In this document: positions 33,949-58,400 of the stretch, piece by piece
Layout of the letters: each line of letters starts with the position of its first letter
Position numbering within the stretch: the stretch's first letter is position 1
Made by a program: the position numbers and the translations under genes
DNA from: an uncultured Spirochaetota bacterium
Lineage (GTDB): Bacteria; Spirochaetota; Spirochaetia; SZUA-6; DRHE01
Assembly: GCA_963745745.1 (NCBI GenBank)
Contig: CAVUYS010000017.1
Span: 17,734-81,733 of the forward strand
Direction: 5' to 3'
DNA: 64,000 nucleotides
The notes under the pieces: generated by a model
What the model saw: the letters and a program-made list of their open reading frames with translations, nothing else
Databases searched by the model: none
What the model was told of the DNA's origin: nothing

Positions 33949-33969
33949 ACGAGCCAAAGGAGAAACGAA

Positions 33970-34608
33970 TGTCGGTACAGGAACTGCAGCAGGCAGTGGA
34001 GGCCGGGGACAAGGACCGCGCCACGGCGCTGGCCCGGGACCTGCTGGGCAAGGGCACGGACGGCCCTGAAGATCATCGAGTCCCTCACCCAGCTGATGAG
34101 CGTGGTCGGCGAGAAGTTCTCCCGCCTGGAGATCTTCCTGCCGGAGATGATGATGGCCGGCGCGGCCATGTCCGCGGTGGTGGAGCTGCTGGGCCCGCAG
34201 CTGAAAGCCAGCAAACAGGGCCAGCCCAAGGGCAGGATCGTGCTGGGCACCGTGATGGGCGACCTGCACGAGATCGGCAAGAACATCGTCAAGCTGATGC
34301 TGGAGACCCAGTTCTTCGAGGTGAAGGACCTGGGGGTCAACGTGGACGCGGTCGTCTTCATCAAGGAGGCCGAGGCCATGGGCGCCAACCTGATCGGCGC
34401 CTCCTCCCTGATGACCACCACCATGCCCCACCAGAAGGAGATCGTGAACCTCCTGAAAGACAAGGGGCTGCGCGCCAAGTACAAGGTCGTGGTCGGCGGG
34501 GCGCCCGTGAACCAGAAATGGGCCGAGGAGATCGGCGCGGACCTGTACAGCCCGGACGCGGGAACCGCCCCGCGGATGATCGGCGAGCTGCTGAAGGAGA
34601 AAGCATAA
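33970..34608 (+). CDS. Corrinoid (B12)-binding methyltransferase partner protein (B12-binding_2 cap + B12-binding Rossmann domain); frameshift near 34060
   Basis: MSVQELQQAVEAGDKDRATALARDLL (cap), then ..RIVLGTVMGDLHEIGKNIV.. (DxHxxG B12 motif), ..GASSLMTTTM.., ..KVVVGGAP.. Confidence 0.75.
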   Translation, partial: CRYRNCSRQWRPGTRTAPRRWPGTCWARARTALKIIESLTQLMSVVGEKFSRLEIFLPEMMMAGAAMSAVVELLGPQLKASKQGQPKGRIVLGTVMGDLHEIGKNIVKLMLETQFFEVKDLGVNVDAVVFIKEAEAMGANLIGASSLMTTTMPHQKEIVNLLKDKGLRAKYKVVVGGAPVNQKWAEEIGADLYSPDAGTAPRMIGELLKEKA

Positions 34609-35990: not shown

Positions 35991-36002
35991 ACGGGAAGCG
36001 CC

Positions 36003-37890: not shown

Positions 37891-38474
37891 ACATCCTGAT
37901 CACCGGGGTCGGCGGGCAGGGCACGGTCACCCTGGGGGACCTGATCGCCGAGCGGGCCGCGGACCTGGGGCTGCCGGTCTCGGTGTTCCACTCCCGCGGC
38001 ATGGCCCACCGCGGCGGCCGCGTGGCCGGGGAGATCCGCATCGCCTCCCGGCCCGGCCAGCGCCTGGCCGCCCGCCTGTCCCCCGGCGGGGCGGACGTGC
38101 TGGTCGGCATGGAAGTCGGGGAGACGATCAACTCCCTGCCCTTCCTGCGCGAGGGAGGGGTGGCTTTGCTGATCGACTACCGTTACGTGCCCTCCGAGTC
38201 GGCGCTCAAGAAGGAGGCCTACCCGGATCTGCAGAAGGCGGTCGAGCTGTTCTCGCGCCGCACCCCGCGCGTCTTCGCCGTGGTGCGCCCGCCGGCGCCC
38301 GTGAACCTGTTCGCCCTGGGCTGCCTGAGCGCGGCGCTGCCGGAGGAAATGGACCCCCAGGGGATCTTCGACCCGCAGGGGCTGGAGGAAACCATCCGCG
38401 GTTTCCTGAAAAAGAACACGGCAGCGAACCTCGAAGTCTTCCGCCGGGGACGCCAGCATGCCAGCCGGGGTTAA
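37887..38474 (+). CDS. iorB: Indolepyruvate:ferredoxin oxidoreductase beta subunit
   Basis: ATGA overlap with iorA; MNILITGVGGQGTVTLGDLIAERA... 196 aa, typical IorB. Confidence 0.8.
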   Translation: MNILITGVGGQGTVTLGDLIAERAADLGLPVSVFHSRGMAHRGGRVAGEIRIASRPGQRLAARLSPGGADVLVGMEVGETINSLPFLREGGVALLIDYRYVPSESALKKEAYPDLQKAVELFSRRTPRVFAVVRPPAPVNLFALGCLSAALPEEMDPQGIFDPQGLEETIRGFLKKNTAANLEVFRRGRQHASRG

Positions 38475-40932: not shown

Positions 40933-41376
40933 ATGGCCAAGCCTGATTTCGTATACGTGACCTATATCTCCGCCTCGCCGGAAAAGGTCTGGAAGGCGAT
41001 CGTCGACCCTCAGACGGCGGCCAAGTACTGGCAGCACGTGAACCTGTCCGAATGGACGCCCGGCTCCAGGTGGGAGCACCGGGAGAACGACAGCAAGGGC
41101 AAACTGCGCCTGGTCGGCAGGGTGGTCGAGAGCTCGCCCCCCCGGCGCCTGGTCCTGACCTGGGCCGCTCCGGCCGACGAAGCGGATGAGCGGAAACACT
41201 CGCGGCTGACCCTCGAGCTGCAACCGTTCGGCGAGGTGGTGCGCCTGACGGTGACGCACGACCGCTTCGAGCCCGGCTCCGAGATGCTGGAAAGCATCAA
41301 GGAAGGCTGGCCCAAGGTCCTCGCGAGCCTCAAGTCCCTGCTGGAGACCGGAAAGCCGCTGCCCAGCCTGTGGTAG
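40933..41376 (+). CDS. SRPBCC-superfamily protein (AHSA1 / activator-of-Hsp90-ATPase-like), classic ArsR partner
   Basis: MAKPDFVYVTYISASPEKVWKAIVDPQTAAKYW...; RBS ggaaggaga; 147 aa. Confidence 0.75.
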   Translation: MAKPDFVYVTYISASPEKVWKAIVDPQTAAKYWQHVNLSEWTPGSRWEHRENDSKGKLRLVGRVVESSPPRRLVLTWAAPADEADERKHSRLTLELQPFGEVVRLTVTHDRFEPGSEMLESIKEGWPKVLASLKSLLETGKPLPSLW

Positions 41377-41403
41377 GCTGAACGCCGCCGCGCGCCCGGG
41401 GGG

Positions 41404-42516
41404 CTATTTGCCCTTCCCCTCGCGCAGGGCGGCGGCCTCGCTCTCCAGGGCCTGCATCTCCTCCGCCGTGTCCAGCACCTGGAAGTCGATCTTCAGTGGT
41501 GTAGCTGGACTGCCCGGCCAGCATGGGCAGCTCCCCGCGCTCGCGCAGCACGCCGCGGCCCAGGGGCGTGACGTTCCCGGGCTCCAGGCCCAGCACGTAG
41601 AAACCCCGCAGCGGATTCTTCCACACGGTGAAGGCGGGCAGCTCCCGGCGGTCGAAGCGCATCACCAGGCCCAGCGGCGTCCCGTCGCCCGACGTCCGGG
41701 TTGAGCGAGGCCCACGAAGGTGCGCTCCTGGCGGTCCGCGGCCAGCTCCAGGAAGAAGACCTTCTCCTGATAGTCCTGGATCGGCGCGGGAAAGAGCAGG
41801 GCTTCCTCCACTCCCCGCCCCGCGCGGGCCTGCTCGTCCCGGGGCACCACCCCCCGGATCGGCCCCACCACCCGGGCCCCCGGGCCCAGCAGCGGGAAGC
41901 CGAAGTTGCAGTGGTACAGCAGCATCAGCGGCTGCTCGGCGAAGCCGCGGTTCTCCACCACGTCGTGCAGCGAGAAGCCTTTGGCCCCCAGGCGGGTTTC
42001 CAGCCTGCGGGTCAGGGTCATGTTCTCGCCGGCCAGGGCCTGCACCTCGCGCACCCGGCCCTTCAGCCGGATCAGGTACTCCTCCCCCTGCCACTCCTGG
42101 TCGATGGCCAGGTCCTCCGCCCCGGCGTTGGACACGCGCCCGTGCAGGCCGAAGGGGCGGCCCTGGTCCACGGTCGGGTGCCCGGCATTGGTGATGCCGC
42201 AGGTGGTCAGGAACCCGGCGAAGAAGCCGCGCAGCCAGCTGTCCCCGGGCTCGTCGTAGTAGGCGGGGGAGGTGATGCCGGTGCCGGAGAGGAAGCTCAG
42301 GGCCCGCCCGCGGAAGCTCGCTTCGGCGATGTCCATTCCCCTGCCCGGCAGCACGGTGAAGCTCAAGCCTCCTCCGGTGTCCACCCGGACGCCCTTGACC
42401 CCCTCGGCCTTGCCGTCGGCCAGCACGAAGGGCGTGGCCCCCGCCACTTGCGAGGGGTCCCCGATGAGCGAGAGCAGCTCTTCCTTCTTCCAGTTTCTTC
42501 CCAGGTAGCTTGCCAT
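41404..42516 (-). CDS. Aldose-1-epimerase-like (DUF4432-type) family protein; two frameshifts in the C-terminal third (about 41500 and about 41660)
   Basis: ..GITNAGHPTVDQGRPFGLHGRVSNAGAEDLAID.., ..MLLYHCNFGFPLLGPGARV..; the tail resumes as ..RFDRRELPAFTVWKNPLRGFYVLGLEPGN.. and then ..PLKIDFQVLDTAEEMQALESEAAALREGKGK*. Confidence 0.55.
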
Positions 42517-42955: not shown

Positions 42956-44521
42956 TCAGGGCGCGGTCCGGCGGTACACCAGCTGGTCGGACAGCACCAC
43001 CTGCTCCCCCTCCAGGTGCTCCAGGCCCTGGTCCAGCAGCACCGAGCCGCGGCTGACCGCCAGCTCCAGCAGGGCGCCCCGGAAACGGACGATGGCCTGC
43101 AGGAGATCGCGCTGCGACTCGGCGAGCTCCTCCTCGGCCTCGTAGACCCGGTGCATGTCGCTGGTCCCGGCCTCCAGGCGGGCCAGCTCCACCTCCAGCA
43201 GCCGCCGCTTCACGGCCGCCACCCGGCGCAGGCTCTCGATGCGGGCCCGCAGCGTGCCGACCCGCCCGAGCAGGGCCTCGATGCTGCGGCACATCTCGTA
43301 CTCCAGGGCCTCCAGGCGCACCTCCGCCAGCCTCTTCTTCAGCCGGGCCGCCTCCAGCTCGTTGCGCTCCCGGATGCCCAGCAGGAAAGGGGCCCGCATC
43401 TCCAGCCCGAGGGACCAGGTGGGAAAGCGCCCGCCCTCCAGCTTCCCCAGGGACTCTTCCGCCGTTTCGCCCAGACCCCGCAGGCCGTAGCTGCCCTTCA
43501 GGACCAGGTCCGGCAGGGCCTGGCTTTTGCGGTATCCCAGCAGCACGGCCTCCAGCCGCAGCTGTTCCCGGCGCATCATGTAGTCGGGCTGGGCGCGCCG
43601 CGCCCACTGGAGGGAGGAGGCCCGTTCGGCCTCCAGGTCGGCGGCCCCCGGAGCATCCGGCACCAGGGGGTCGGCGGCCACGATCCGCAGGTCCTCTGCG
43701 AGCCGCGCCCCGGCCATCAACAGCTTGAGCTGGGTCACCGCCTCCCGGACGGCCTGCCCCGCGTCGGCCCGCCGGGCCTGCCGGAGGGCCAGCTCGGCCT
43801 CCGCCTGCTGGAGGTCCAGCTCCGACATCTTTCCGCCCTGGACCCAGGCCGCGGCGTCGCGGGCCAGGTTGGCGGCAATCTGCAGGGAATCCTCTTCCAT
43901 GGCCAGGGCGGCCTGGGCCAAGGCGAGATTCCAGTAGGCCTGTTCCGCCTTCAGCAGCGTGTCCATCAGCTGCCGGCGGTACTCGTGGAAGGCGATATAG
44001 CGCTCCTGGCGGGCGGCGCGCAGCGGGGCCAGGGACGCCCCGTGGGTCAGCCCCTTCAACAGCGGCTGCTCCCCGGAAACGCCCACGAAGGACTCGAACT
44101 CCCCCTCATCGGCGTAGGAGTTCTCCATCCTCGTCACCGACCCGCCGAGGCGATAGGTTCCCCCGCCCGGCAGCTTGCCCTCCAGGCCCAGGCCGTATTC
44201 GTCGTTGGTCTCGAAGAACTCCAGGGCGCCCAGTTGCAGGACCTGCTGCAGGGAGGTATTCTCCCGCGTCAAAGAGTCCCGGCGGAAGTGGCCGGCCAGG
44301 GCCGGCTCGAAGGAGCCCCACTCGGAACGGGCCAGGCGGTAGCGGATCAGCCACTGCAGATACGCCTCGTCCACCGCCGGCTGGACCCGCACCGCCTCCC
44401 GCAGGAATTCCGCCAGGGTGAGGTTCAGCAGCGGGGCGTTTTCCTGTGCCGGGAGAAGCGCCGCCAGGCTCAGGCAAACGGCCAGCAGCAGGGTTCGAAC
44501 CATGGAAGTCGATGAATGCAT
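42956..44521 (-). CDS. TolC-family outer-membrane channel protein
   Basis: Signal peptide MHSSTSMVRTLLLAVCLSLAALLPAQE, two TolC repeats with coiled coils, about 520 aa. The extended ORF to 44641 overlaps the divergent hlyD start, so the start is placed at 44521. Confidence 0.8.
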   Translation of the reverse strand: MHSSTSMVRTLLLAVCLSLAALLPAQENAPLLNLTLAEFLREAVRVQPAVDEAYLQWLIRYRLARSEWGSFEPALAGHFRRDSLTRENTSLQQVLQLGALEFFETNDEYGLGLEGKLPGGGTYRLGGSVTRMENSYADEGEFESFVGVSGEQPLLKGLTHGASLAPLRAARQERYIAFHEYRRQLMDTLLKAEQAYWNLALAQAALAMEEDSLQIAANLARDAAAWVQGGKMSELDLQQAEAELALRQARRADAGQAVREAVTQLKLLMAGARLAEDLRIVAADPLVPDAPGAADLEAERASSLQWARRAQPDYMMRREQLRLEAVLLGYRKSQALPDLVLKGSYGLRGLGETAEESLGKLEGGRFPTWSLGLEMRAPFLLGIRERNELEAARLKKRLAEVRLEALEYEMCRSIEALLGRVGTLRARIESLRRVAAVKRRLLEVELARLEAGTSDMHRVYEAEEELAESQRDLLQAIVRFRGALLELAVSRGSVLLDQGLEHLEGEQVVLSDQLVYRRTAP

Positions 44522-44612
44522 GGCTGTGGCCATTATAGGGAAATTTCCACGGATGAAAAGCGATTGCATTCCCGAGCGGCCCGGTCTACAGTAGCGCAAC
44601 GATGAGGAAAGC

Positions 44613-45428
44613 ATGAGAGTCCGGCGACGAATCTCCGCCATTTTCTGCTTCCAGCTTCTGCTCCTTTCCGCCGCCTGGGGTCAGGGCCTGGCCCCGAGGG
44701 GGATCACCGAGCCCTGCCGGGACGCCACTTTGAGCGCCACGGTGGCCGGGACCCTGGCGGTCATCCACAAGAAGGAGGGGGAGCCGGTCCGCGCGGGGGA
44801 GGTGATCCTGGAACTGGAGAGGGACCTGGAGAGCATCGAGGTGGAACGGCGCCTGCTGATCGCGGAGAGCAAGGTGGAGCTGGAGGCGGCCCGCCGGCGG
44901 GCGGAACAGCTTGGCCTGGAGCTTCAGGCCACCCGCCGGCTGTACGACTCCACGGGGTCGGTGTCCCGGGAGCAGCTGCAGCAGAAGGAGCTGGAGGCCT
45001 CGCTGGCCGAAGCGGAGCTGGAGCGCCTGGCGATCGCCGAAAAGAGGGAAATGCTGGAGCTGCGCATCGCCGAGGCCCAGCTGCGGCAGCGCTCGATCGC
45101 CTCGCCGTTCGACGGGGTGATCGCCCAGATCATCCCCGAAATCGGGGAGGCCTGCCACCCGCAGCAGCCCCTGGTCCGCGTCGTGGACACCTCCCGCTGC
45201 CGGCTCATCGTCCATCTGGAAGCGGCTGCGGCGCTCCAGTTGGCGGCGGGAAAGCCGGCCCAACTCCGGTTCGACGGGATCCGCCCCCCCAACCTCGTGC
45301 GCGGCGTCGTGGAGCTGGTGTCGCCCGTAGTGGACCCGGCCAGCGGCCTGGTGCAAATCAAGGTGCTGTTCGACAACCCGGAGGGGCGGATCCGCCCCGG
45401 GTTGAGCGGCACCTTGCTCTTGAAGTGA
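44613..45428 (+). CDS. HlyD/membrane-fusion-protein family periplasmic adaptor (short form)
   Basis: Signal/anchor MRVRRRISAIFCFQLLLLSAAWG, biotin-lipoyl hairpin ..TVAGTLAVIHKKEGEPVRAGEVILELE.., coiled coil, beta-barrel ..IASPFDGVIAQI.. Confidence 0.8.
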   Translation: MRVRRRISAIFCFQLLLLSAAWGQGLAPRGITEPCRDATLSATVAGTLAVIHKKEGEPVRAGEVILELERDLESIEVERRLLIAESKVELEAARRRAEQLGLELQATRRLYDSTGSVSREQLQQKELEASLAEAELERLAIAEKREMLELRIAEAQLRQRSIASPFDGVIAQIIPEIGEACHPQQPLVRVVDTSRCRLIVHLEAAAALQLAAGKPAQLRFDGIRPPNLVRGVVELVSPVVDPASGLVQIKVLFDNPEGRIRPGLSGTLLLK

Positions 45429-47296
45429 AAGGTCAGGACGACGTGAAGGCGGATGCCGGGCAGCGGCCGGCGGAACAAGCAGGCTACCTGCAGGCCCTGG
45501 AAGGCCTGCAGAAGCTCCGCTCCTTCGAGGGCGAGCCTGCCCGCTTCTGGCCCCTGTACGCGCATCACCTGGTGATCGCCGCCGGGGCGGCCAGCGGGCT
45601 GATCGCCGTTCGGGAGGAAAGGCCGCAGCCGCACTGGAGGCCTCTGGCGCTGTCCCCCGCCAACCTGAAGGCGGGAGGCGTCTCCGAGGCCATGCTGGCG
45701 GGAGCCGAGGAGCGCCTGCAGGATTGCCTGCGAGAGGGGGCCGCCCGCTGGGAGCAGGCGGGCAACCAGCTGGCCGCGGTGCGCCTGCAGACGGGCGCCG
45801 GTCAGGAGGTCTGCCTGGCGGTGCTCCTGCTGGAAGCCGGCGATCCCTGCCCGCAGCAGGAGGTCCTGCGCCGCCTCGCCCTGGCTGCCGACATCCCGGC
45901 CGCCTACCAGCTCCTGCGCGTGGCCGCGGAATCCAGGACCCGGGTGGAGCAGCTGGCCAGCGTGCTGGACCTGATGGTCCTGCTCAACGCGGAAAAGAAC
46001 CTGCTGCCGGCGGCCATGCGCCTCTGCAACGAGCTGTGCTCCCGCCACCGCTGCGAGCGGGTGAGCCTGGGCTGGCTGGAAGGGGGCTACGTCCGCCTGC
46101 AGGCCATCAGCCACACCGACCAGTTCGACCGCAAGACCGAGGCCGTGCAGCTCCTGGAGGCGGCCATGGAGGAGGCCCTGGACCAGAACGCGGAGATCCT
46201 CTGGCCGCGGAACGACGACGGCGGCACGGTCCGCCGCGACCACCGCAACTTCGCCCGCGGCCAGGACGTCGCCCACCTGTGCTCCCTGCCGCTGCGGGTG
46301 GACGAGCAGGCCGTGGGCGTGCTGACCTGCGAGCGGGCCGCCAGTCCTTTCGCGGAAACGGAGCTGCGCCTCCTGCGCCTGTCCTGCGACCAGGCCGCCC
46401 GGCGCCTGGCGGACCTGAAGCGCAGCGACCGCTGGCTGGGGGCGCGCCTGGCCGCGGAAGCCAGGGAGGCCCTCGGCCGCCTGCTGGGCTTCGAGCACAC
46501 CTGGTTGAAGCTCCTGGCCCTGCTGGCGGCCGCCGGCCTGGGCTTCCTGTTCCTCGGCCGGGTCCCCTACCGGGTCAAGGCCCCGGTCGCCTTGAGGACG
46601 GACGACGTGGCCTACGTCACCGCCCCCTTCGACGGCCACCTCGAGCAGGTGCGCTTCCGGGTAGGCGATGCCGTGCAACAGGGCCAGGAGCTGCTGAGCC
46701 TGGACCGGACCAGCCTGCTCCTGCGGGAGGCGGAGCTGATCGCCGAGCAGAACCGCTACCTGGGCGAGCTGGAGAAGGCCCGGGCTTACGCCGCCACCGC
46801 CGACATGCGCATCACCCAGGCCATGTACGACCAGGCCTTCGCCCGGCACGAGCTGGTGCGCTACCAGCTGGCCCAGGCGGTGGTCCGCTCCCCGCTGTCC
46901 GGGGTGGTCATCGAGGGGGACCTGGCCGAGCGCCTCGGCACGCCCGTGCAGCAGGGCGACCTGTTGTTCAAGCTGGCGCGCATCGAGCGGCTGTACGCGG
47001 AAGTCGAGGTGAAGGAAGCCGACGTGCAGGAGCTCGCGGAGGGAATGGCAGGCAGGATCAGCCTGGCCAGCCGGCCTCAGGAGAGCTGGCCGATCCGCGT
47101 CCTGCGGGTGGAGCCGGCGGCCGTGGCCCGGGAGAAGGGCAACGCCTTCGTCGTGCGCTGCCTCCTGGAGGGCAGCCCGCAATCCTGGTGGCGCCCCGGG
47201 ATGACGGGCATGGCCCGGCTGGAAGCCGGCCGGCGCAAGCCGGTCTGGGTGCTGACCCACCGGACGGTGGATTTCCTGCGCCTGCGGCTCTGGTAG
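45425..47296 (+). CDS. Bitopic protein: about 370-aa cytoplasmic N-terminal domain (tentatively GAF-like, two Cys-containing subdomains) - TM helix - periplasmic HlyD-like adaptor domain
   Basis: GTGA start overlap; TM WLKLLALLAAAGLGFLFLG; HlyD blocks ..VTAPFDGHLEQVRFRVGDAVQQGQELLSLD.., coiled coil, ..VRSPLSGVVIEGDLAERLGTPVQQGDLLFKL.. Confidence 0.65.
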   Translation: MKGQDDVKADAGQRPAEQAGYLQALEGLQKLRSFEGEPARFWPLYAHHLVIAAGAASGLIAVREERPQPHWRPLALSPANLKAGGVSEAMLAGAEERLQDCLREGAARWEQAGNQLAAVRLQTGAGQEVCLAVLLLEAGDPCPQQEVLRRLALAADIPAAYQLLRVAAESRTRVEQLASVLDLMVLLNAEKNLLPAAMRLCNELCSRHRCERVSLGWLEGGYVRLQAISHTDQFDRKTEAVQLLEAAMEEALDQNAEILWPRNDDGGTVRRDHRNFARGQDVAHLCSLPLRVDEQAVGVLTCERAASPFAETELRLLRLSCDQAARRLADLKRSDRWLGARLAAEAREALGRLLGFEHTWLKLLALLAAAGLGFLFLGRVPYRVKAPVALRTDDVAYVTAPFDGHLEQVRFRVGDAVQQGQELLSLDRTSLLLREAELIAEQNRYLGELEKARAYAATADMRITQAMYDQAFARHELVRYQLAQAVVRSPLSGVVIEGDLAERLGTPVQQGDLLFKLARIERLYAEVEVKEADVQELAEGMAGRISLASRPQESWPIRVLRVEPAAVAREKGNAFVVRCLLEGSPQSWWRPGMTGMARLEAGRRKPVWVLTHRTVDFLRLRLW

Positions 47297-47306
47297 CGGG
47301 GACGGG

Positions 47307-49457
47307 ATGCTCGAAGAACGCAAGGTCTTCCACGAATCCTGGTATCGCATCGCCGGACAGCGCATCGCCCTGCGCTCCAGCGTCAAGGTGCGCCGCCAGA
47401 TGTACCGCGGCTCCCGCTGGTACCTGCTGCACGACCCTTTCAGCAACCAGTTCTACCGCCTGGCTCCGCCGGCCTACGCCTTCGTGGCCCGCTTAGGCCT
47501 GGAGCGGACCCTGGAAGAGGTCTGGCAGGAGAGCATGGCCCAGGACGCGGAGAACGCCCCCGGGCAGGAGGAGGTCATCCACCTCCTGGCCCAGCTCTAC
47601 CATGCCAACCTGCTGCACTACGAGCTGCCCGCGGACAGCCAGAAGCTGTTCGAGCGCTTCCGCGAGCGCAGGCAGAGGACCCGGCAGGCCACTGTTATGA
47701 ACATCATGTTCATCCGCCTGCCCCTTTTTGATCCGGACCGCCTGCTGCAACGCCTGCAGCCGGTGGCCCGCCTGCTGTTCAGCCCCCTGGGCCTGCTGGC
47801 CTGGGGCGCCGTGCTGGCGGGCGCCCTCAAGGTGGCCATCGAGAACTTCCCCGCATTGCGGGTGCAGAGCCAGGGCATCCTGGCCTTGCCCAACCTGCCC
47901 CTGATGTACCTGGCCCTCGTGCTGATCAAGGCCCTGCACGAGCTGGGCCACGCCCTGGCCGTACGCCGCTTCGGCGGGGAGGTGCACACCCTGGGGGTCA
48001 TGTTCCTGATCTTCAGCCCGCTGCCGTACATGGACGCCACCGCGGCCTGGGCCTTCCGCAGCAAATGGCGCCGGGTACTGGTGGGAGCCGCCGGGATGAT
48101 CGCCGAGTTGTTCGCGGCGGGCGTGGCCGTTTTCATCTGGGCCTCCACCGGACCGGGGATCCTGCACTCGCTGGCCTACAACACGATCTTCGTGGCCTCC
48201 CTTTCCACCATCCTGTTCAACCTCAATCCCCTGCTGCGCTTCGACGGCTACTACATCCTCTCCGACCTCCTGGACATCCCCAACCTGCACGCCCAGGCCG
48301 GCCGGCAGCTGCGCCACCTGGTGGAGCGCTTCGCCTTCGGCGTGCGCCAATCCCGCGGTCCGGCGGGCACCCGCAGCGAAGCGTTCTGGCTCTCGGTCTT
48401 CGGGGCCTTGAGCGGCGCCTACAAGCTGGTGGTGTTCTCCACCATCCTGCTGGTGGTGGCCGACCGCTTCCTGCTGGCGGGGGTGATCATGGCCGCGGTT
48501 TGCGCGGTGGCCTGGGTGCCGGCGCCCCTGGTGCGCCTGGGGCGCTACCTGGCGGGAAGCCCGCGCCTGGAGCGCGTCCGCTTGAGGGCCGCGGGGGTCT
48601 GCCTGGGCGCGCTGGCCCTGCTCTTCGGCCTGCTGTGCTTCCTGCCCTTCCCCAACGGCTTCAAGGCGCCGGGAGTCCTGGAGGCCGCCGAGCACATCGT
48701 GGTGGCCAACGGCGTGCCCGGAACCATCGAGCGGATCCTGGCCAGCCCGGGAAGCCGGGTCCGGAAGGGCGATGCGCTGGTCGCCTTGCGCAACGGGGAG
48801 CTGGCCTTCCGCATCCAGGAGGTGCAGGCCAGCCTGCGGCAGGTGCAGGCCACGCGCCAGAAGGCCCTGCTGTCCAGCCGGGCGGACCTGCGCTCCATCG
48901 ACAGCCTGGAGTCCACCTTCCTGCAGCAGTTGGACCGCCTGCGGCAGGACGAGCAGCGGTTGGTGCTCCGCGCCGAGATCGGCGGGCGCTGGTCGGCCCC
49001 GCAGCTCAAGGACTTGCGGGGCATGTGGATCCGCCGCGGCACGCCGCTGGGCCAACTGCTGGACGACCGGGCTTTCGTTTTCACCTCCGTGGTCTCCCAA
49101 CAGGAGGTCTCCCGGCTGTTTTCCGATGCCATCCGCTCCTCCCAGGTCCGCCTGGCCGGCCAGGCGGGGGTGGACCTGGAAGTGCTCTCGATGACCCGCA
49201 TTCCCGCGGAGCTGACCCGCCTGCCTTCGATCTCCCTGGGTTTCGCCGGCGGCGGGGAGGTGGCCGTGAACGTCCGGGAATCCAGCGGCGCGATCGCCGC
49301 CGAGCCTTTTTACGAAGTGAGGATGGAAGTGGCCGGCGGGGCGGCCCTGTATCACGGCCGCTCCGGTCGCGTGCGCTTCCGGCTGGAGCCGGAGCCTCTC
49401 CTGCGGCAGGGCTACCGCCGCCTGCGCCAGCTGCTGCAGCGGCGCTACCAGTTGTAG
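47307..49457 (+). CDS. Peptidase-M50 (site-2-protease-like) polytopic membrane metalloprotease fused to a C-terminal periplasmic HlyD-like adaptor domain, with about 130-aa N-terminal cytoplasmic domain
   Basis: HExxH inside TM (ALHELGHALAV) and M50 second motif NLNPLLRFDGYYIL. C-terminal lipoyl-like hairpin ..GTIERILASPGSRVRKGDALVAL.., long coiled coil, ..YHGRSGRVRFRL.. barrel. Confidence 0.65.
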   Translation: MLEERKVFHESWYRIAGQRIALRSSVKVRRQMYRGSRWYLLHDPFSNQFYRLAPPAYAFVARLGLERTLEEVWQESMAQDAENAPGQEEVIHLLAQLYHANLLHYELPADSQKLFERFRERRQRTRQATVMNIMFIRLPLFDPDRLLQRLQPVARLLFSPLGLLAWGAVLAGALKVAIENFPALRVQSQGILALPNLPLMYLALVLIKALHELGHALAVRRFGGEVHTLGVMFLIFSPLPYMDATAAWAFRSKWRRVLVGAAGMIAELFAAGVAVFIWASTGPGILHSLAYNTIFVASLSTILFNLNPLLRFDGYYILSDLLDIPNLHAQAGRQLRHLVERFAFGVRQSRGPAGTRSEAFWLSVFGALSGAYKLVVFSTILLVVADRFLLAGVIMAAVCAVAWVPAPLVRLGRYLAGSPRLERVRLRAAGVCLGALALLFGLLCFLPFPNGFKAPGVLEAAEHIVVANGVPGTIERILASPGSRVRKGDALVALRNGELAFRIQEVQASLRQVQATRQKALLSSRADLRSIDSLESTFLQQLDRLRQDEQRLVLRAEIGGRWSAPQLKDLRGMWIRRGTPLGQLLDDRAFVFTSVVSQQEVSRLFSDAIRSSQVRLAGQAGVDLEVLSMTRIPAELTRLPSISLGFAGGGEVAVNVRESSGAIAAEPFYEVRMEVAGGAALYHGRSGRVRFRLEPEPLLRQGYRRLRQLLQRRYQL

Positions 49458-49460
49458 GCC

Positions 49461-51446
49461 ATGAGCTTTCTGTCCCGCGACTACCTGCGCACGGACATCC
49501 GGCAGCCGCCGGAGCTGTACCGCGGCCTGGACGCCTGGCTGTTCTCGCTGGTGAACTGGGTGAACCAGGGCCCCGGACCGGTCGGCGAGCATCTGGCCCG
49601 CGCCCGCCTGGTCGACGAGCGGGCGGCGGCCTGGAAGGACCTGAGGGAGAGGACCCTGAGCGCCCGCCTGCTGGAGTTCCGGCAGGCCTTCCGGCGCCGC
49701 CGGCAGGCGGAGGAGCTGCTCCTCGACGCGCTGGCGGCCATCCGCGAGGCGGCCTTCCGCCACCTGGGCCTGCGCCCCTACCCCGTCCAGCTGGCCGGCG
49801 CCCTGGCCCTGCACCGCGGCTGCCTGGCGGAGATGTCCACGGGGGAAGGCAAGACCCTCACCGCGGCCATGACGGGCATCCTTCACGGCTGGACCGGGCT
49901 GCCCTGCCATATCATCACGGTGAACGACTACCTGGCCGGGCGCGACGCGCGTTGGATGCAGCCGCTGTACCGCTTCTGCTGGGTGTCCGCCGGCAGCGTG
50001 ACCTCGGAGATGGGCCCGGCGGAGCGGCGCGAAGGCTACCGCCGGGAGGTGACCTACACCACCAACAAGGAGATCGTGGCCGACTTCCTGCGGGACCGCC
50101 TCTGGCTGGGCGGCCTGCAGGACAGCGGCCGCAGGCAGATCGCCAGTCTGCTGGGCCGCAACCAGCTGATCGAGCAGGGGATGGTCATGCGCGGCATCCA
50201 CGCCGCCATCGTGGACGAGGCCGACAGCATCCTGATCGACGAGGCGGTCACTCCGCTGATCATTTCCCGCGCCTCGCCCAACGCGGTGTTCAGCGAGGCC
50301 TGCCTGCTGGCCCACGAGCTGGCCCGCGGCCTGGAGCGGGACCGCGACTACGCGGTGAATCAAAAACGCCAGGAGATCGAGCTGCACCCCGATCTGGAAC
50401 GACGCCTGGCCGAGCGGATCCGCGGCTCGGGAGCCCGCTACCGGGGCTTGAGCGGCTACCTGGAGCTGGTGCACCAGGCCTTGAGCGCCAGGGAGTTCTT
50501 CCACCGCGACAAGCAGTACGTTCTATCAGAAGGCAAGGTGGTCATCGTGGACGAGTTCACCGGGCGCCAGATGCCGCAGAGGACCTGGCGAGCCGGCCTG
50601 CACCAGTTCATCGAGGCCCGGGAGGGGTTGGCTCTGACCCCGCCTTCGGAAACCCTGGCCCGCCTGAGCTTCCAGCGCTTCTACCGCTTCTTCCGGCGCC
50701 TGTCGGGGATGACCGGAACGGCCCGCGAGGCCCTCCAGGAGTTCTGGGACATCTACCGCCTGCCCACGGTCAGGATCCCGGAAAACCGTCCCTGCCGCCG
50801 GCAGCATCTGCCCACCCTGGCTTTCGCCGACTCCGAATCCAAGTGGCGGGCGCTGGTGGAGGAGATCCGGGGCGTCCACGCCCAGGGCAGGCCGGTGCTG
50901 GTGGGCACGCGGAACGTGCGGGCCAGCGAGAAGCTCTCCGCCCGCCTGACCGGCTTGCGGCTGGAGCACCGGGTGCTCAACGCCGTCCGCCATCAGGAGG
51001 AGGCCCTGATCGTGGCCGGCGCGGGCAGCCGGGGGGCCGTCACTATCGCCACCAACATGGCCGGCAGGGGCACGGACATCCGCCTGGGCGAGGGCGTGGC
51101 CGGGCTGGGGGGGCTGCACGTCATCGCCTCGGAATGCCACGAGTCCCAGCGCATCGACCGGCAGCTCTTCGGCCGCTCCGCCCGCCAGGGCGACCCGGGA
51201 AGCGCCCGCCTGTTCGTGAGCCTGGAGGATGAGATTCCCGGCCGCCACCTTCCGGAAGCGCTGCGGCGCCTGCTTCGCCTGGAGCTGCAGCGCCGCTTTC
51301 CGGCGGCCGGGCTGCAGGCGGCGGCGGCCGTCCGCCTGGCCCAGCTTTCCGCCCAGCGGCAGGCCTACCGACGCCGCCGGGCCGTGCTCGAAATGGACAA
51401 CTGGCTGGAGGATTCGCTCTCCTTCGGCCAGCGGGAGATCAACTGA
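49461..51446 (+). CDS. SecA-like ATPase comprising only the motor core (NBD1 - preprotein-crosslinking region - NBD2); lacks helical-scaffold/wing/C-terminal domains of canonical SecA (661 aa vs about 900)
   Basis: EMSTGEGKTLTAAM (Walker A), HIITVNDYLAGRDARWMQPLYRF, IVDEADSILIDEAVTPLIIS (Walker B / DEAD), GRPVLVGTRNV...VTIATNMAGRGTDIRLG...LHVIASECHESQRIDRQLFGRSARQGDPGSARLFVSLED. Ends about 60 aa into the helical scaffold. Confidence 0.8.
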   Translation: MSFLSRDYLRTDIRQPPELYRGLDAWLFSLVNWVNQGPGPVGEHLARARLVDERAAAWKDLRERTLSARLLEFRQAFRRRRQAEELLLDALAAIREAAFRHLGLRPYPVQLAGALALHRGCLAEMSTGEGKTLTAAMTGILHGWTGLPCHIITVNDYLAGRDARWMQPLYRFCWVSAGSVTSEMGPAERREGYRREVTYTTNKEIVADFLRDRLWLGGLQDSGRRQIASLLGRNQLIEQGMVMRGIHAAIVDEADSILIDEAVTPLIISRASPNAVFSEACLLAHELARGLERDRDYAVNQKRQEIELHPDLERRLAERIRGSGARYRGLSGYLELVHQALSAREFFHRDKQYVLSEGKVVIVDEFTGRQMPQRTWRAGLHQFIEAREGLALTPPSETLARLSFQRFYRFFRRLSGMTGTAREALQEFWDIYRLPTVRIPENRPCRRQHLPTLAFADSESKWRALVEEIRGVHAQGRPVLVGTRNVRASEKLSARLTGLRLEHRVLNAVRHQEEALIVAGAGSRGAVTIATNMAGRGTDIRLGEGVAGLGGLHVIASECHESQRIDRQLFGRSARQGDPGSARLFVSLEDEIPGRHLPEALRRLLRLELQRRFPAAGLQAAAAVRLAQLSAQRQAYRRRRAVLEMDNWLEDSLSFGQREIN

Positions 51447-52070: not shown

Positions 52071-52421
52071 CTAGTTTCCGCTGGGACTGCCGGGACCGCG
52101 CTTCTTCTCCATCATCTCCACCTGGCTCATCAGCCAGTAGGCCAGGGCCTTGGCCTGCCCCGGGCTCATGATCACCCCCACCTGGGACTGGCGCGTGAAC
52201 GGGGAGTCCTTCGGGCTGCGCTCGATCTCCGGCCCGATCCCGTCCGGGGTGAGGGAGTGCACCGACTCCTCCGGAACTTCCAGGTACTCGATGAAGAGAT
52301 CGAACTTGACGTCCCCCCGGGGGGTGGCGCCTCCAAGCGCGCCGTTGGCGAAGACGATCCGGTACTCCGGGTGCTTCTCGTAGCGGTACACGATCCTCTT
52401 GCGGGCAAACCCTTCTTCCAT
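52071..52421 (-). CDS. Small cytoplasmic protein, DUF3467-like
   Basis: MEEGFARKRIVYRYEKHPEYRIVFANGALGG...VGVIMSPGQAKALAYWLMSQVEMMEKK; about 116 aa, between the giant adhesin gene and the operon end. Confidence 0.45.
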   Translation of the reverse strand: MEEGFARKRIVYRYEKHPEYRIVFANGALGGATPRGDVKFDLFIEYLEVPEESVHSLTPDGIGPEIERSPKDSPFTRQSQVGVIMSPGQAKALAYWLMSQVEMMEKKRGPGSPSGN

Positions 52422-52425
52422 GGGC

Positions 52426-55400
52426 TCAATGATGCCCGCATTTGTCGCCGAAAACCAGCTCCACCCAGTTGCGCCGGCCAAGCCGGGCCGCCGAAGCCGC
52501 GATGTCCTCCAGCAGCCGCTCCAGCCACGGGTTGGCCACCGCGACCAGCACCGGATCCTGGCCGCCGTCGCCCTGCCTTTCCAGATCGCAGCCCGGGCCT
52601 CCGTCCAGGTGGTCGCAGTGGCTGCCGCCGTACAGCCGGTCCGCCCCGTCCTCGCCGAACAGGGCATCCTCGTCGCGGCCGCCCAGCAGCACGTCGTTGT
52701 CAGCTCCACCGTACAACCGGTCGCGGCCTTCCTGGCCGTACAGGATGTCCGCTCCCTCCCCGCCGCCGAGCAGGTCGTCGCCGGAGCGCAGAGTGAAGTG
52801 TCCGTGGTCGCAGTCGTCCCCGCCCGGGCCATAGGGCTGCGCCTGCAGCTCGACGGAGAAGGTCGAGCACTGGTAGGCGAAAACGGGCTTCACTGCGGCG
52901 TTGTCCCCGAAGGCCACATCGTCGCCGCCCTCGCCCTCGATCCGGTCGGCGCCGCTGTGCACGTTGGCCTCCGGCGGCCGGCAGCCGCAACCGCCGCAGC
53001 AGCCATGATCGTGCTCGCCGCCGTGGAAATCGTGCCCGTAGGACGGGTCGGCATGCGCATCGCGGAGCAGGCCCGCCGCGGCGGCCAGCAGGCTGTCGGC
53101 TGCCCGGTTGAGCTCCTCGGCCTCCTGGCGGCTGTCCGGCGCCTGCTGGAGGGCCGGGAGGATCAGCAGGGCGTGGTCACCCACCAGCAGGTCGGCATCC
53201 TCCCCACCGTAGAGCTCATCGTTGCCCACGTGGTACTCGTAGCCGGGCCGGTAAACGATCAGGCGCAGGTCCTTGGCCTTCGGCAGGCCTTCGAGAAGAT
53301 CCTCGTGATCGTGCTTCAGGTGCCAGTACAGCCGGGCGTCCAGTGCCTTGTCCTGGGCGGCGAGCGCCCATTCGGTGCTCTTCAACAGGCACCAATCCAC
53401 CGCCAGCGGATCCACCGTGTGCGCGGCGCTGCCGATGACGACCGGCAGGACCAGCACCGCGCTGTCGCCGACGATGGTGTCCTCCCCCGCCCCGCCGTAG
53501 AGCCGATCGTTGCCCAGGAACAGGCTCCGCAGGGCCAGGTCGACCAGGTCCTTGTCCCGGGGCGGGTGATGGCAGGGATTGTGCGCAATCGCATCGGCGA
53601 CCAGGCCCTGCAGGACTTCCCGGTGGGCCTCGGCCAGCAGGTGCTGGAAGTCCACGGCCACGTACTCGAGGTCGCGCAGGAAGCGATGGAAGTCCAGCGC
53701 CGCCTGCTGGAACTCGCCGGCCGGGACCTCGAAGCGGACGAACCAGGGGGCCAGCAGCGCCGCCTCATCGCCCACGATGGTGTCGTTGCCCGTCCCCCCG
53801 TCGACCGTGTCGCAGCCGATCACCACCGCGGAGGGGGACTGCACCCCCAGGACGACCCGTTCGTACAGGTCGTAGTCCAGCGCTACGTGGCGCATCCAGG
53901 CCAGAAGCTCGGAAAGCTCCTCCGTGAGCTCGCCCAGCGCCCGGTCGATCTCCTTCAGCCCCGTGACCAGCGGAGAGCCCATGGTCACCGGGTCGGCGAA
54001 GATCAGGTCATCCCCTGCGTCCCCCCGCAGCAGGTCGTTCCCGGGCAGGACATCGGGGTGATGGACCACATCGGGGACCAGCTGGATGTAGGCCGAAAGC
54101 ATCGTGCCGTCGCTGCAGGACAGGCGATCGCCCAGGGCGATTTCCAGCAGCGCCGGATTGACGTCGGTGTACAGGGTGAGCTGCGGTTGGAGCGCGGCCA
54201 GCTCATCGGGGACCAGCTGCACGTCGGCCACGATCAGGGAGCCGCCGCTTTCCAGGTCGATGGGCACCGCCGCCCCGGCGGCGATGCCGATCAGGCGCAC
54301 GCCGCTCACGATCTGGGGCAGGTCGGAGGCCAGGCTCATGGTGTTGACCCCGCCGTCCCCGAAGAGCAGGTCCGCGCCGTCCCCGCCGCTGATCGTGTCG
54401 TTCCCGCGCTGGCCGAACAGGACGTCGTCGCCCTCCCCGCCGTCCAGCAGGTCGTCGTCGGCCGGCACCAGGTCGATCAGCAGGGCCTCCGTGCGCCAGG
54501 CCCCATTGTCCGGGCTGGTAGAGCGGCGCGCCGTCCGGCCCGAAGGCTCCGGCCAGCACGATCAGGTCGGCCTGGAACAGGGCCCGGGCCAGCTCCGCCA
54601 GCGGCAGGCCAAGCGGCGTGCGGTCCATGGGCAGCAGCCCGGTGAGGAAGCCCACCTCTTCGAGGAACACATCCCGGTGCCAGGAGCCGTTGGAGTTCTC
54701 AAGCGGCGTTCCGTCCCCGCTCCAGGCGCGCAGGATGAGCCCCACGTCGCCGAGGACGAAATCCCGCCCCTCCTGTCCCCACAGGCTGTCGGGGCCCAGT
54801 TCGCCGTACAGCTCGTCGTCTCCCGAGCCGCCGTACAGCGTGTCCGCCCCGCGCTGGCCGTGCAGAATGTCGTCGCCAGGGCCGCCGAGCATGGTGTCGT
54901 CACCGGCCACCCGGTCGAGGTCGTCGAAGCGGACCAGGTCGCGGATCACGTCGGCGAACGGCGCGGGATAGCGCTCCCATTCGCCCCCGGGCAGCAGGCG
55001 GCGCAAGATCGTCCCGTTGTCGCCCAGCAGCACATCGGCCCCGCTCCCGCCGTCCATGGTGTCGGAGCCGTCCGCGCCGAAGGGGACGTTGTGCCCGCCG
55101 GTCAGGTCGTCCTCGCCGTCCTCACCGCAGAGCAGGTCGTCCCCCTGCTGGCCCAGGATGAAGTCATCCCCCGCACCGCCGAAGATCGCGTCGTTGCCGC
55201 CCGCATCCGTCGGGCCGGTGTAGATCGACTGGAACCTCTGGTTGGCCGGAAGGGCCGTATCCCAGCGCCCATGGTCGCCCAGCAGGATGTCGGAGCCTTC
55301 CCCGCCCAGGATGAGGTCGGCGCCGGTCCCGCCGAACACCAGGTCATCCCCGGCGAGGGCGGAGAGGTCATCGTTGCCGCCGACCAGGGGATCCACCGAG

Positions 55401-58400
55401 AAGATGCGCGCCGGAGCGCGGGCCACCCCGTCCGTCCGGTCCCCGGGCCCGCCGTTGCCAAGCACGGTCACGATTTGGCCGGCCTCGTCCAGGTAGAGCA
55501 CCCGGCCGCGGTCGCCGAACAGGATGTCCGCGCCGGTCCCGCCGGTGATCTGATCCGCGTCCTGGCCGCCGAACACGATCAGCGGCAGGCTGGAGGCCGA
55601 TCCGTCGACGAAGTCCGCATCAGCCAGCCAGGGGAAGGACTGCCAGGGACCCTGGGTGTTGAGCACGAAGAACCCGTCCGTGGCCTCGTCCAGGGCCACG
55701 GTGACCCGGTCGTTGCCCAGACCGGTGTTCAAGGTGGTCACGGTGCGCACGCCGGGGCGCTGGTGGGTGCCGTCGATGGCGATGACCTCCGCGCCCCAGC
55801 CGCTCCACAGCGTGATCCCGTCGGCGAAGTTGCCCTCCGCATCGGCGCGGAAGCCGATCGGCGCCGGCGCCAGGCCAATGATCGAGATCTCGGCCAGGGG
55901 CAGGTCGGCTACCGGCTGGTCGGTGATGAAAACCGCGGCGTCCCCGGCCAGGGCCGCTTCGTCGCTCACCATGAGCAGGTGGCGGCCGGAGCCGGCGTCC
56001 AGGAACAGCGGGCCGAGCAGGCCGTCCAGGTTGCCTTCCAGGAAATCCGTTTCCGCGCCGCTGGCCAGATTCGAGACGTAGATCCGCTCGTCCCCGTCAT
56101 GCAGCCGGATGGAGGTGGCCGCCCGCGTGCCCTGCACGTTCAGCACGTCGGCCCCGGAGCCCAGGTCGAGGTTCAGGATTTCCAGGGCGGCGTAGCGGAT
56201 GCCCGCGGTGCGCAGCTCCGCGACCACCGGGGCGGTCAGACAGCGTCCGTCCACCTGCAGGAGCAGGGCGCCGGCCTGAGGCACGGTGCCGTAGTGCACC
56301 GTGAAGGTGTCGCCGCTGCGGGTGACGTTGATCCCCTCCGTGCCCAGGGCGTCGTTGAGCGCGGCCTGCACCGCCGCGGCCCCCGCGTCGAATCCCAGGG
56401 GACCGGTCCAGCTTCCGCCCAATCCCAGGCGCCAGGTGCCGGCCACGGCGTTCAGGGTGAAGGAGGCGCTGCCCTGGCCCTGCTGGACCTGGGAAACCCC
56501 GCTCACGCTCAGGGCCAGCCCCTGGCCCGCCGCTCCGGCCAGGATGCCCCGATAGCCGACCAGGAAGGCGTTTCCGATCGGCAGCACCGCCACGTCGTCG
56601 AAGCCGGCCGTCTCCAGCCCCGGCAGCGTGCGCAGGGCGTTCAGCAGGGCCAGCTCGACATCCGCGGCGCCCGCGCCCGCGCTCAGCGCGAAGGTGGCGC
56701 CGCCGACGGTGACCTCGTAGGTGCCGAAGGCCGCGTACAGGTCCAGCACCTGCTAGCGGTCCACGGGAGCGGGCTGGGCGACGAGGGCCGGCGCGGCGCC
56801 GGGGGCGGGATCCAGCTGGGCGGCATTCCCGCTCAGCGCCAGAGAGGCGGCCAGCAGCTGCTCATCCCCGCTGAAGGCAATGCGGAAGCAGTCCCCAGCC
56901 CGGTTGACGGTGACCTCCGTCACGTGCGGCAGACCCAGGGCCAGCAGGGCGATGCGGATTTCCGAGGCGCTGGCCCGCAGGGGGAGCGGCGCCGTGGTAA
57001 GGCCCCCAACGCTCAGGGTGAAGGTGCCGCCGGCCGCCCCCTGGATGCTCACGGTCCAGACCAGCGCTTCGGCCAGGTCCAGGCCGCTGAGGGTGGTGCC
57101 GGTCAGCCAGACCACGTCCGCGGTGGCGTCCCCGCCGTCGTTCACGTTCAGCGTGTCCAGCCCGGTCCCGCCGTCCACCACCAGCAGGCCGTCGAGGCGG
57201 TCCACCGCCTGATCGGCCGGCTCCCCCGCGTTGACGAGGTCATTGCCGGCTTCCATCCGCAGCAGGGTGGTCCCCGCGATGCTCTGCACGTCGATCTGGT
57301 CGGCGCCGGGCCCGGCGTACACTTCAGTGGCCCCAGCGTGCGTGGAAAGGATCAGCAGCCGGTCGTTCCCGGAGCCCAGGCGCAGGACCAGTTCCTCCAG
57401 GTCCTGGTAGCCGATCCCCTCCGGCCCCAGGCCCAGCCCGGCCAGAAGGCTCTCGCTGAGGCGTGCCCGTTGTGTCCGCCAGGCTGCCGGTGCTGTAGGC
57501 CCGCAGGGTGTCGACCTGCTCGCACTCCACCGCCTCCAGGTTGGGGTTGGCTTCCCCGACGAACAGGTCCGGATCGCTCTCCCCCAGGTACAGGACCGGT
57601 TCGGGGATTTCCTGCTCCTCCGTGGTTCCGCCGAAGAGCTGCAGCGCTCCCTGGATGCCCTCCAGCGTCCACGGGCTGCTCAATCCGAAACCGACCGGCC
57701 CGGAGCTCCCGCCCACCTCGATCGCGTCGCTGCCCAGGCCGCCGAAGACGCGTGTGACCGCCAGCGCGCTGGTGCCGAGCACCACGATGCGGTCATCCCC
57801 CTCCGCCGCGTCCAGGTCCAGGCTCTCCACCCCGGTGTAGGTCGCGGAGAGGCCGGCCCCGTACACGCCCTGGGCGGTGACCGCGAACAGGTCGGCGAAC
57901 TCCGTGCCGGTCACCACCTGCAGGTCCTGCCCTTCCCCGCCGTCGATGGCCAGCGGCCCGCTGGCCGCGTACAGGACGGAGTCCTCATCGCCGAGGCTCA
58001 GGGGATCGGCGGCCTGCGAGCCCTGCAGGGCGAAGAGGCGCACCGCGAAGCGGTCATCCCCCTGCTCGCCGTTCAGCTGCAGCGCGGCCCCGTTGTGGAA
58101 GACCGTGAAGCGGTCGTCGCCCGGCCCGCCGTTGAGGGTGGCGGCCTGGCTGGTCCCGGCGCTGAGCCAGCCGCGGGTGGTGGTGAGGGTGTCGATCTCA
58201 TCCCCCGCCGCTACCTGGGACCACTCGCGCGGAGACTGGAACAGCTGGCCCACCTGGAAGCGATCCGCTCCTTCGCCTCCGTAGATCGTGGTCGGGGCGC
58301 TGTTGTCGTCCAGGCTGAAGGTGTCGTCGCCGGCGCGCCCGTGGATGGCCAGGCCTTCCAGCGAGGCGTTGTAGTTCACCCGCTCCGCCGTGGGGCTCTG

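Follow-up and report, generated by a model that had tools for sequence, protein, structure and literature searches.

The window examined here is a stretch of 64,000 nucleotides from an uncultured Spirochaetota bacterium (contig CAVUYS010000017.1 of assembly GCA_963745745.1, positions 17,734 to 81,733). It contains a gene for a truncated SecA paralog (short SecA), located at the 3' side of an operon of periplasmic adaptor genes that is divergent from a gene for a TolC-like OEP. Comparison of this cassette with related loci suggests that short SecA is a specialised paralog, which probably powers a dedicated exporter for giant proteins with an N-terminal LEPR-XLL motif. The genes of the cassette, with window coordinates and strand, are:

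42956-44641 (-): TolC-like OEP, matched by Pfam OEP (4e-30) over two stretches; divergent from the operon
44613-45428 (+): small periplasmic adaptor of the HlyD/MFP family, 271 aa; first operon gene, with an N-terminal signal peptide or anchor
45425-47296 (+): GAF-adaptor fusion, 623 aa, matched by Pfam GAF (5.3e-08), HlyD_D23 (4.9e-19) and HlyD_3
47307-49457 (+): RRE-M50-adaptor fusion, 716 aa, with a PqqD-like domain, an M50 core and an adaptor
49461-51446 (+): short SecA paralog, 661 aa, ATG start, with NBD1, PPXD, NBD2 and the first scaffold helix
51466-52053 (+): small secreted or outer-membrane-like protein, 195 aa; last operon gene, with a signal peptide and beta-rich

The position and the 661-residue length of the short secA open reading frame (ORF) were exactly as given in the original prediction, which had been made from the letters of the window, and all of the ATPase landmarks that it had claimed were found in the ORF (AEMSTGEGKT, HIITVNDYLAGRDA, VDEADSILIDEA, IATNMAGRGTDI and ECHESQRIDRQLFGRSARQGDPGS). 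Pfam detected SecA_DEAD (7.8e-90), SecA_PP_bind (1.4e-22, residues 284–385) and P-loop_SecA (4.3e-52), with no match to the wing/scaffold (SecA_SW) or SEC-C domains. The best NCBIfam model was that of housekeeping secA, aligned over positions 6–618 of 787. Alignment to the SecA and SecA2 families, proposed as a check, placed the protein under the cutoff in both, with 564.7 bits against 800 for TIGR00963 and 559.5 against 814 for NF009538 among the canonical models, and 469 against 930, 420 against 725, 476 against 1085 and 355 against 1100 bits for the SecA2 models TIGR03714, TIGR04221, TIGR04397 and NF012136, respectively. The motifs of the DEAD motor (Walker A, DEAD and arginine-finger) were invariant across 59 family sequences. 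The family also has motifs of its own, an N-terminal DYxRTxIRxP..GLDA and a C-terminal VLxMDxWL[DE][DE][SA]LSF (VLxMDxWLxDSLSF in the window copy). No second SecA-like region was found within the window.

Alignment with Bacillus subtilis SecA paired residues 51–650 of the query with 26–604 of the chain at approximately 38 % identity, with a 20-residue insertion in NBD1. In an AlphaFold model of short SecA (pLDDT 81, pTM 0.79), the only helices after NBD2 were 599–610, 616–643 and 648–653, corresponding to the first scaffold helix (28 residues) and a short tail. The model thus agrees with the earlier claim that the protein stops about 60 residues into the scaffold. The wing domain, the IRA1/two-helix finger and the zinc tail were likewise missing as claimed, given the lack of Pfam matches and the end of the alignment at model position 618 of 787. 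The AlphaFold model contained extra, family-specific N-terminal helices and a helical hairpin inserted in NBD1 (approximately 202–240). It superposed on solved SecA structures with TM scores of up to 0.79, the best superpositions being with SecY-bound, substrate-engaged SecA (6itc_A and 5eul_A).

On these sequence comparisons, short SecA is a true, intact paralog. The stop codon was found at an equivalent position (658–668) in 81 of 81 related loci, at exactly 661 in 42 of them, and the conserved C-terminal motif immediately preceded it. Nearly all of the best 120 homologs were 660–666 aa long, with 100 % query coverage and 55–95 % identity, and they came from many phyla, where homologs of this length number in the hundreds. 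When each species was represented by a single genome, a scan found carriers in at least 594 of these genomes, including Verrucomicrobiota, Spirochaetota, Desulfobacterota, Omnitrophota, Nitrospirota and others. Among the matches listed, the closest relatives of the window's short SecA were from Spirochaetaceae metagenome-assembled genomes (MAGs), at 66–72 % identity. If short secA were a full-length gene interrupted by an assembly error or a frameshift, it would not be the only such case in this assembly, where frames are disrupted in a DUF4432 gene (near 41680) and in a giant RTX gene (near 54500 and 57400, and by a TAG at 56753). This explanation is nevertheless virtually untenable in view of the conserved placement of the stop after a conserved motif in many phyla, the clustering of homolog lengths at 660–666 aa, the absence of wing/scaffold and SEC-C domains by Pfam, and the downstream DNA, which encodes a signal-peptide protein without SecA similarity. 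The original prediction had leaned towards the same view from the next ORF, which begins at 51466 in another frame and has its own ribosome-binding site (purine-rich, GGGGGA-type), and the conserved stop upholds it.

Two oddities were seen among the homologs. A lone longer homolog of 830 aa (P0076) had a normal short-family C-terminus and an internal tandem duplication of approximately 170 residues (LEPLYHFCGVRVGF... twice), which is likely to be an assembly artefact. Several family members (P0047, P0074 and P0119) are named 'prepilin peptidase' in NCBI records, and this naming looks like an annotation error spread between MAG records.

The HlyD/TolC setting of short secA was as originally described, with the OEP gene and three plus-strand genes for adaptor-domain proteins directly upstream. 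The gaps between the operon genes in the window were, in gene order, -4, 10, 3 and 19 bp. The conserved partners that the original prediction had suggested looking for were found in a comparison with 82 loci of other species. In 80 of these loci, the M50 fusion ended no more than 500 bp upstream of secA, with a median gap of 16 bp, and the order adaptor, GAF fusion, M50 fusion, SecA was kept in 65. An OEP ortholog was present in 59 of the 82, and all five core genes were present in 54 of the 60 loci that had at least 8 kb of upstream sequence. No ABC exporter was found in or beside the window cassette, nor in the gene calls for two of the related loci (L001 and L002); the ABC genes of the window are of importer type (BPD_transp, oligo_HPY and solute-binding partners). 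The conservation of an HlyD/M50/TolC cassette argues for a job of short SecA outside the housekeeping Sec pathway, and short SecA, a specialised paralog, very probably does not belong to that pathway.

The M50 fusion comprises a PqqD-like domain (approximately residues 10–105), the motifs HELGH (211–215) and NPLLRFDG (307–314), and a periplasmic HlyD-type adaptor (approximately 447–716). The first 105 or so residues had a mean column identity of 75 % across 25 species, and Pfam PqqD matched 21 of the 25 orthologous N-termini (best E 8.2e-07). A profile of the RRE alignment returned only noise when compared with PDB sequences (D-amino-acid oxidase, E approximately 0.5), so fold comparison was needed for this domain. 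An AlphaFold model of the whole fusion (pLDDT 80) had strands at 20–52 and three helices at 54–99, followed by a helical membrane core (143–445) and a periplasmic adaptor with an alpha-hairpin. By fold comparison, the PqqD-like domain had the three-stranded sheet and three-helix winged-helix fold that define an RRE, and it matched lasso-peptide leader-binding proteins. For the window copy, the putative RRE assignment is based on the orthologs and the structural model. The S2P fold was also present and the HExxH and NPLLRFDG motifs were invariant in 51 sequences, as is characteristic of site-2 proteases. The M50 part resembled the HExxH protease of daptide biosynthesis (1.4e-48) and the YydH/LiaK proteases, and the adaptor domains gave weak matches to an NHLP bacteriocin secretion protein, all far below the NCBIfam cutoffs. 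The JGI label for the fusion is 'putative peptide zinc metalloprotease'. One polypeptide is thus predicted to unite leader recognition, intramembrane cleavage and a periplasmic adaptor.

In many of the loci a very long ORF on the strand of short secA started 140–800 bp past the stop of that gene. The length of these giant ORFs ranged from 1,500 to more than 3,300 codons, with most of them extending beyond the fetched flank. Their N-termini consisted of 7–10 polar residues, the motif F-x-L-E-x-L-E-P-R-[VIL]-L-L-S-[AG]-D and a weakly hydrophobic stretch. This motif corresponds to the NCBIfam 'LEPR-XLL domain' (NF012209), whose cutoff of 17 bits was reached by eight of ten tested N-termini. The motif was found in 24 of the 82 loci, both by regular expression and by hidden Markov model (HMM), mostly heading the giant gene just downstream of short secA. 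These loci belonged to Verrucomicrobiota, Spirochaetota, Desulfobacterota, Omnitrophota, Limnocylindria and Magnetococcales, while reversed-sequence controls (1.38 Mb) gave zero matches.

A reciprocal test was made by scanning metagenomes with the LEPR-XLL motif alone, seeded with a six-sequence alignment, which yielded 72 confirmed loci. Short secA was present in 15 of these, nearly always ending 100–300 bp upstream on the same strand, and the motif-bearing ORFs mostly exceeded 3,300 codons. By chance, such adjacency would be expected in well under 1 % of cases, given a single cassette in a genome of several megabases. RTX repeats were rejected as a common cargo feature, since outside Spirochaetota they occurred in only a single Opitutaceae locus. 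When three giants were scanned with Pfam over the N-terminal 2,600–3,300 residues only, those of L025 and L063 gave no RTX match. What the giants linked to the cassette have in common across phyla, as far as the sequences go, is the LEPR-XLL motif at the N-terminus.

In one locus (L049), two successive LEPR-XLL motifs were found downstream of the same short secA, at 12248 and 13171 (+). An ORF of 233 codons begins with the first, and one of at least 1,958 codons, a giant, with the second. This arrangement may reflect a decayed copy or the presence of several cargo genes.

The window has a giant gene of its own, followed by a small conserved gene:

52426-63998 (-): candidate cargo, giant RTX-repeat gene, convergent with the operon; its N-terminus lies past the window end
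52071-52418 (-): small conserved gene of approximately 115 aa (MEEGFARKRIVYRYEKHPEYRIVF...), just past the stop of the giant gene

The giant gene is represented by four pieces on the minus strand (57324-63998, 56753-57322, 54203-56752 and 52426-54561). Pfam RTX repeats were detected in all three large pieces and are C-terminal in this giant. Protein-like sequence ran on past both frame changes (near 57400 and near 54500) and past an in-frame TAG at 56753 (GACCGC TAG CAG GTG). The pieces probably belong to one gene that assembly errors or decay have disrupted, unless they are separate genes lying side by side. The window giant was 54 % identical over approximately 1,300 residues to the giant of another Spirochaetota locus (L009), which follows the cassette of that locus and starts with MKMGIDKKKFQLEPLESRLLLS, carrying the LEPR-XLL motif. 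Neither the regular expression nor the HMM found the motif inside the window, because the N-terminus of the giant is beyond position 64000. The small gene, for which there was no Pfam match, had counterparts of 69–80 % identity that occupy the corresponding place after the cassette in three Spirochaetota loci (L001, L003 and L004).

Taken together, these observations favour, with moderate confidence, a model in which giant LEPR-XLL proteins leave the cell through a dedicated trans-envelope exporter of type-I-like design, with short SecA as its cytoplasmic ATPase in place of the ABC transporter. The basis of this model is the domain anatomy, the conserved truncation, the gene order and the two-way linkage to LEPR-XLL genes, from which we infer the steps of secretion. 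The PqqD-like RRE domain of the M50-adaptor fusion would bind the N-terminal LEPR-XLL leader of the cargo. The PPXD/NBD2 clamp of short SecA would grip the unfolded chain and feed it forward, N-terminus first, at the expense of ATP. The conserved terminal motifs of short SecA (DYxRTxIRxP..GLDA and WLDDSLSF) probably dock it on cytoplasmic parts of the M50 fusion, the GAF fusion or both. The M50 intramembrane protease would cut off the leader, and the three adaptor-domain proteins would assemble under the TolC-like OEP and take the chain to the cell surface. The GAF domain may gate or regulate the machine. The engineered SecA-N68 reportedly lacks the auto-inhibitory element IRA1; the natural truncation resembles this IRA1-less form, so control of the ATPase would have to come from the partners.

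Several points weigh against the exporter model. The cassette encodes no obvious protein-conducting channel, so that the route across the inner membrane is its largest gap, and M50 proteases are not known to form such a channel. Only roughly one in four to one in three loci carries a LEPR-XLL gene next to the cassette, and 57 of the 72 LEPR-XLL genes in the metagenome scan were not beside one. Non-adjacent genes fit a system with several cargo genes, yet they are the main weakness of the argument. For the window itself, the N-terminus of the giant is off the window and the gene is fragmented, so its link to the cassette is by homology only, through the L009 gene; with its C-terminal RTX repeats, it could be the substrate of an ordinary ABC-type type I secretion system (T1SS) encoded elsewhere. 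The window's own RRE copy was not detected by Pfam PqqD at E <= 1. In the literature searched, no experimental work on the cassette was found, including any follow-up of a 2015 paper that described it (see below).

With no known channel in the cassette, the main rival is a two-step route, in which short SecA would act in the manner of SecA2 through SecYEG, the RRE-M50 protein would serve as a dedicated signal peptidase, and the adaptors and OEP would carry the cargo from the periplasm outward. Short SecA retains PPXD, NBD2 and the long scaffold helix, which together form much of the surface with which SecA docks on SecY; the wing domain and zinc tail are not known to contact SecY. The original prediction that the missing parts are those that dock SecA onto SecYEG therefore stands for the two-helix finger, which enters the channel, and probably fails for much of the docking surface. 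Independence of short SecA from SecYEG is accordingly plausible only. The retained surface fits the two-step route, as does the lack of any other inner-membrane channel in the cassette and the layout of the LEPR-XLL leader, which resembles a signal peptide in its polar N-region, motif and weakly hydrophobic stretch. However, the leader has conserved Glu and Arg residues where a Sec signal is hydrophobic, and the SecY-entering finger is absent from every family member. The best superposition of the model on SecY-bound, substrate-engaged SecA (6itc_A and 5eul_A, TM 0.79) may also point this way, but the conformation of an AlphaFold model is no evidence of a binding partner. The close and conserved association with three adaptors and a membrane protein of eight helices argues instead for a self-contained machine, and we consider the two-step route unlikely, though a serious contender.

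Two further explanations are much less likely than the two-step route. Maturation and export of a bacteriocin or other ribosomally synthesised and post-translationally modified peptide (RiPP), with RRE-M50 binding and cleaving a small precursor and the giants as unrelated passengers, would account for the match of the RRE fold to lasso-peptide leader-binding proteins, the likeness of the M50 part to the daptide (1.4e-48) and YydH/LiaK proteases, the weak NHLP bacteriocin matches of the adaptors and the JGI name. It is improbable, since the NCBIfam matches to peptide systems are all far under cutoff, the cassette genes abut and no conserved small precursor gene or modification enzyme was seen among them in the 82 loci; moreover, a short peptide needs no SecA motor with an intact preprotein clamp, and the two-way association with LEPR-XLL giants is strong. 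Regulated proteolysis or quality control, in which the SecA-like motor would unfold membrane or giant proteins and feed them to the M50 protease, is in keeping with the usual roles of site-2 proteases, which act in signalling or in clearing signal peptides, and with a GAF sensor domain and a motor without the channel-inserting finger. An operon that conserves three periplasmic adaptor domains and a TolC-like OEP has the hallmarks of a trans-envelope conduit, which would be useless for proteolysis, and this explanation is very improbable.

A broader proposal, made tentatively, is that the cassette represents a distinct and widespread class of one-step secretion in diderm bacteria, in which a wing-less SecA, rather than an ABC transporter or SecYEG, would drive proteins of several thousand residues, N-terminus first, through a conduit of RRE-S2P-adaptor and TolC-like proteins. 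LEPR-XLL would be the dedicated N-terminal signal of this system, which the RRE domain binds and M50 removes. Outside the adhesins of ABC-type T1SS, it is little understood how bacterial proteins from 3,000 to over 30,000 residues in length reach the cell surface. Were the cassette the exporter of LEPR-XLL giants, an N-terminal motif that is defined in databases and functionally orphan would become a secretion signal, and a gene cluster known since 2015 would gain a cargo and a testable mechanism. SecA would then be a motor able to serve a conduit outside the Sec system, which bears on the debated contribution of the two-helix finger to translocation.

The remaining genes of the cassette add some detail. 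The true start of the OEP gene is probably near 44503 (Met47), just ahead of the signal peptide, whose hydrophobic segment covers residues 47–65; a promoter-like site lies upstream at 44559-44532 (-). The small adaptor scored 121.5 bits with the NCBIfam model RND_mfp (cutoff 94.9), matched Pfam HlyD_D23 and HlyD_3, and is conserved in position in related loci. The GAF-adaptor fusion has a cytoplasmic N-terminal region with the GAF domain, one transmembrane helix (approximately 360–378) and a periplasmic HlyD-type adaptor, a layout that is also conserved. The 195-aa protein, which was matched by neither Pfam nor NCBIfam and ends in ...TPFNY, looks like a small outer-membrane barrel; its orthologs lie directly 3' of short secA only in Spirochaetota loci (L001, L003-L009, L011 and L013). 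A scan of the operon for terminators and promoters found terminator-like sites to be no more numerous than expected by chance.

Several Verrucomicrobiota loci contain an extra gene of approximately 130–160 aa between the GAF fusion and the M50 fusion (L016 5981-6506, L025 7327-7858, L026 2254-2749, L049 7369-7844 and L052 1215-1798). Its product (FENLRVYKLAE...GANIAEGTGRGS...SLNETQHWLRRA) looks like the 'four helix bundle' proteins of 23S rRNA intervening sequences. Elsewhere in the window, the DUF4432 gene (41330-42516, -) consists of two overlapping ORFs in different frames, with profile positions 2–235 in one and 238–298 in the other, which points to a frameshift near 41680, either an assembly indel or a pseudogene. 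A stop-free stretch of 1,778 codons at 33138-38474 (+) has domains of an IclR helix-turn-helix protein, an MtmB-like monomethylamine methyltransferase and pyruvate:ferredoxin oxidoreductase. It is probably several genes in one frame, and a bacterial MtmB homolog is unusual.

Comparative genomics has previously described 'secondary SecA_DEAD domain proteins' that have lost the wing/scaffold, at loci with M50/HlyD, GAF/HlyD, HlyD and often OEP genes, and proposed SecA as the ATPase of a T1SS-like machine in which the M50 protein may be the membrane component (Kamneva, Poudel and Ward 2015, PLoS One; PMC4452313). Neither a substrate nor the RRE domain was mentioned in that paper. The window has both defining features of those loci, namely SecA_DEAD and PPXD without wing/scaffold and the adjacent M50/HlyD, GAF/HlyD, HlyD and OEP genes, and is a rediscovery of the 2015 cassette in a new phylum, Spirochaetota. 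A SecA motor working outside the Sec translocon, which the original prediction had regarded as unusual, is made plausible by the conservation of the cassette, but the idea is not new. The motor anatomy and operon that it had described were borne out, whereas the likely cargo and the leader-binding domain of the M50 fusion had been missed. The RRE domain is an addition to that prediction and to the 2015 description, and the hypothesis of LEPR-XLL as cargo and signal, which is testable, is an addition of the present analysis; no published link between LEPR-XLL (or LEPRxLL) and the cassette was found in the literature searched, the coverage of which did not extend to subscription journals.

LEPRxLL domains have been reported at the N-termini of two epibiont proteins of 36,806 and 20,647 aa in a 2026 preprint on Chlorochromatium aggregatum (10.64898/2026.03.19.712371). 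These Chlorobium chlorochromatii giants are said there to 'lack known signals for transport'. Their co-expression cluster includes Cag_1676, a secA acquired by horizontal transfer, a connection that the preprint does not draw. That Cag_1676 is a short paralog is an unverified lead only. Scaffold and wing are also absent from the SecA DEAD and preprotein-binding domains that are fused into most giant proteins of Omnitrophota and into giant proteins of Actinobacteria, and these domains have been suggested to export the giant protein to which they belong (West-Roberts et al. 2023, bioRxiv 10.1101/2023.11.21.568195). In those proteins the motor lies inside the giant, whereas here it is a separate protein of 661 aa in an adaptor/TolC operon beside a giant gene.

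Among SecA proteins, the canonical form shares NBD1, PPXD, NBD2 and all of the ATPase motifs with short SecA, which differs in ending inside the scaffold, in its extra N-terminal helices and NBD1 hairpin, and in its adaptor/TolC operon. The SecA2 proteins of Gram-positive bacteria (mycobacterial, clostridial and aSec) are likewise second, specialised paralogs for a subset of substrates, and mycobacterial SecA2 also lacks the wing domain. However, SecA2 keeps the second half of the scaffold, which short SecA loses, and acts with SecY or SecY2. The SecA2 proteins aligned here were full-size (PDB chains of 705–786 residues), and short SecA, unlike SecA2, is linked to adaptor and TolC genes of diderm bacteria. 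A near equivalent is Escherichia coli SecA-N68 (PDB 5k9t, PMC5603524), an engineered C-terminal truncation that keeps the DEAD motor and PPXD and is a structural match to the model. SecA-N68 is a laboratory construct, whereas the natural family keeps approximately 60 more residues of the scaffold helix and has conserved terminal motifs.

The other parts of the cassette also have counterparts in known systems. The leader proteases of RiPP systems (daptide NF041824, YydH/LiaK and lasso B1) likewise couple a PqqD-like domain to an M50 HExxH protease, but the fusion described here has a periplasmic adaptor as well, and its apparent partner is a protein of several thousand residues rather than a short peptide. 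As in the T1SS that export RTX adhesins of the LapA type, HlyD-type adaptors and a TolC-like OEP are found beside very large, repetitive and sometimes RTX proteins, and as in the PCAT bacteriocin exporters, a leader-recognising protease is fused to an inner-membrane component. The cassette differs from T1SS in having a SecA motor in place of an ABC transporter, three different adaptor-domain proteins instead of one, and a candidate signal (LEPR-XLL) that is N-terminal rather than C-terminal, with an RRE and M50 module where PCAT exporters have a C39 domain.

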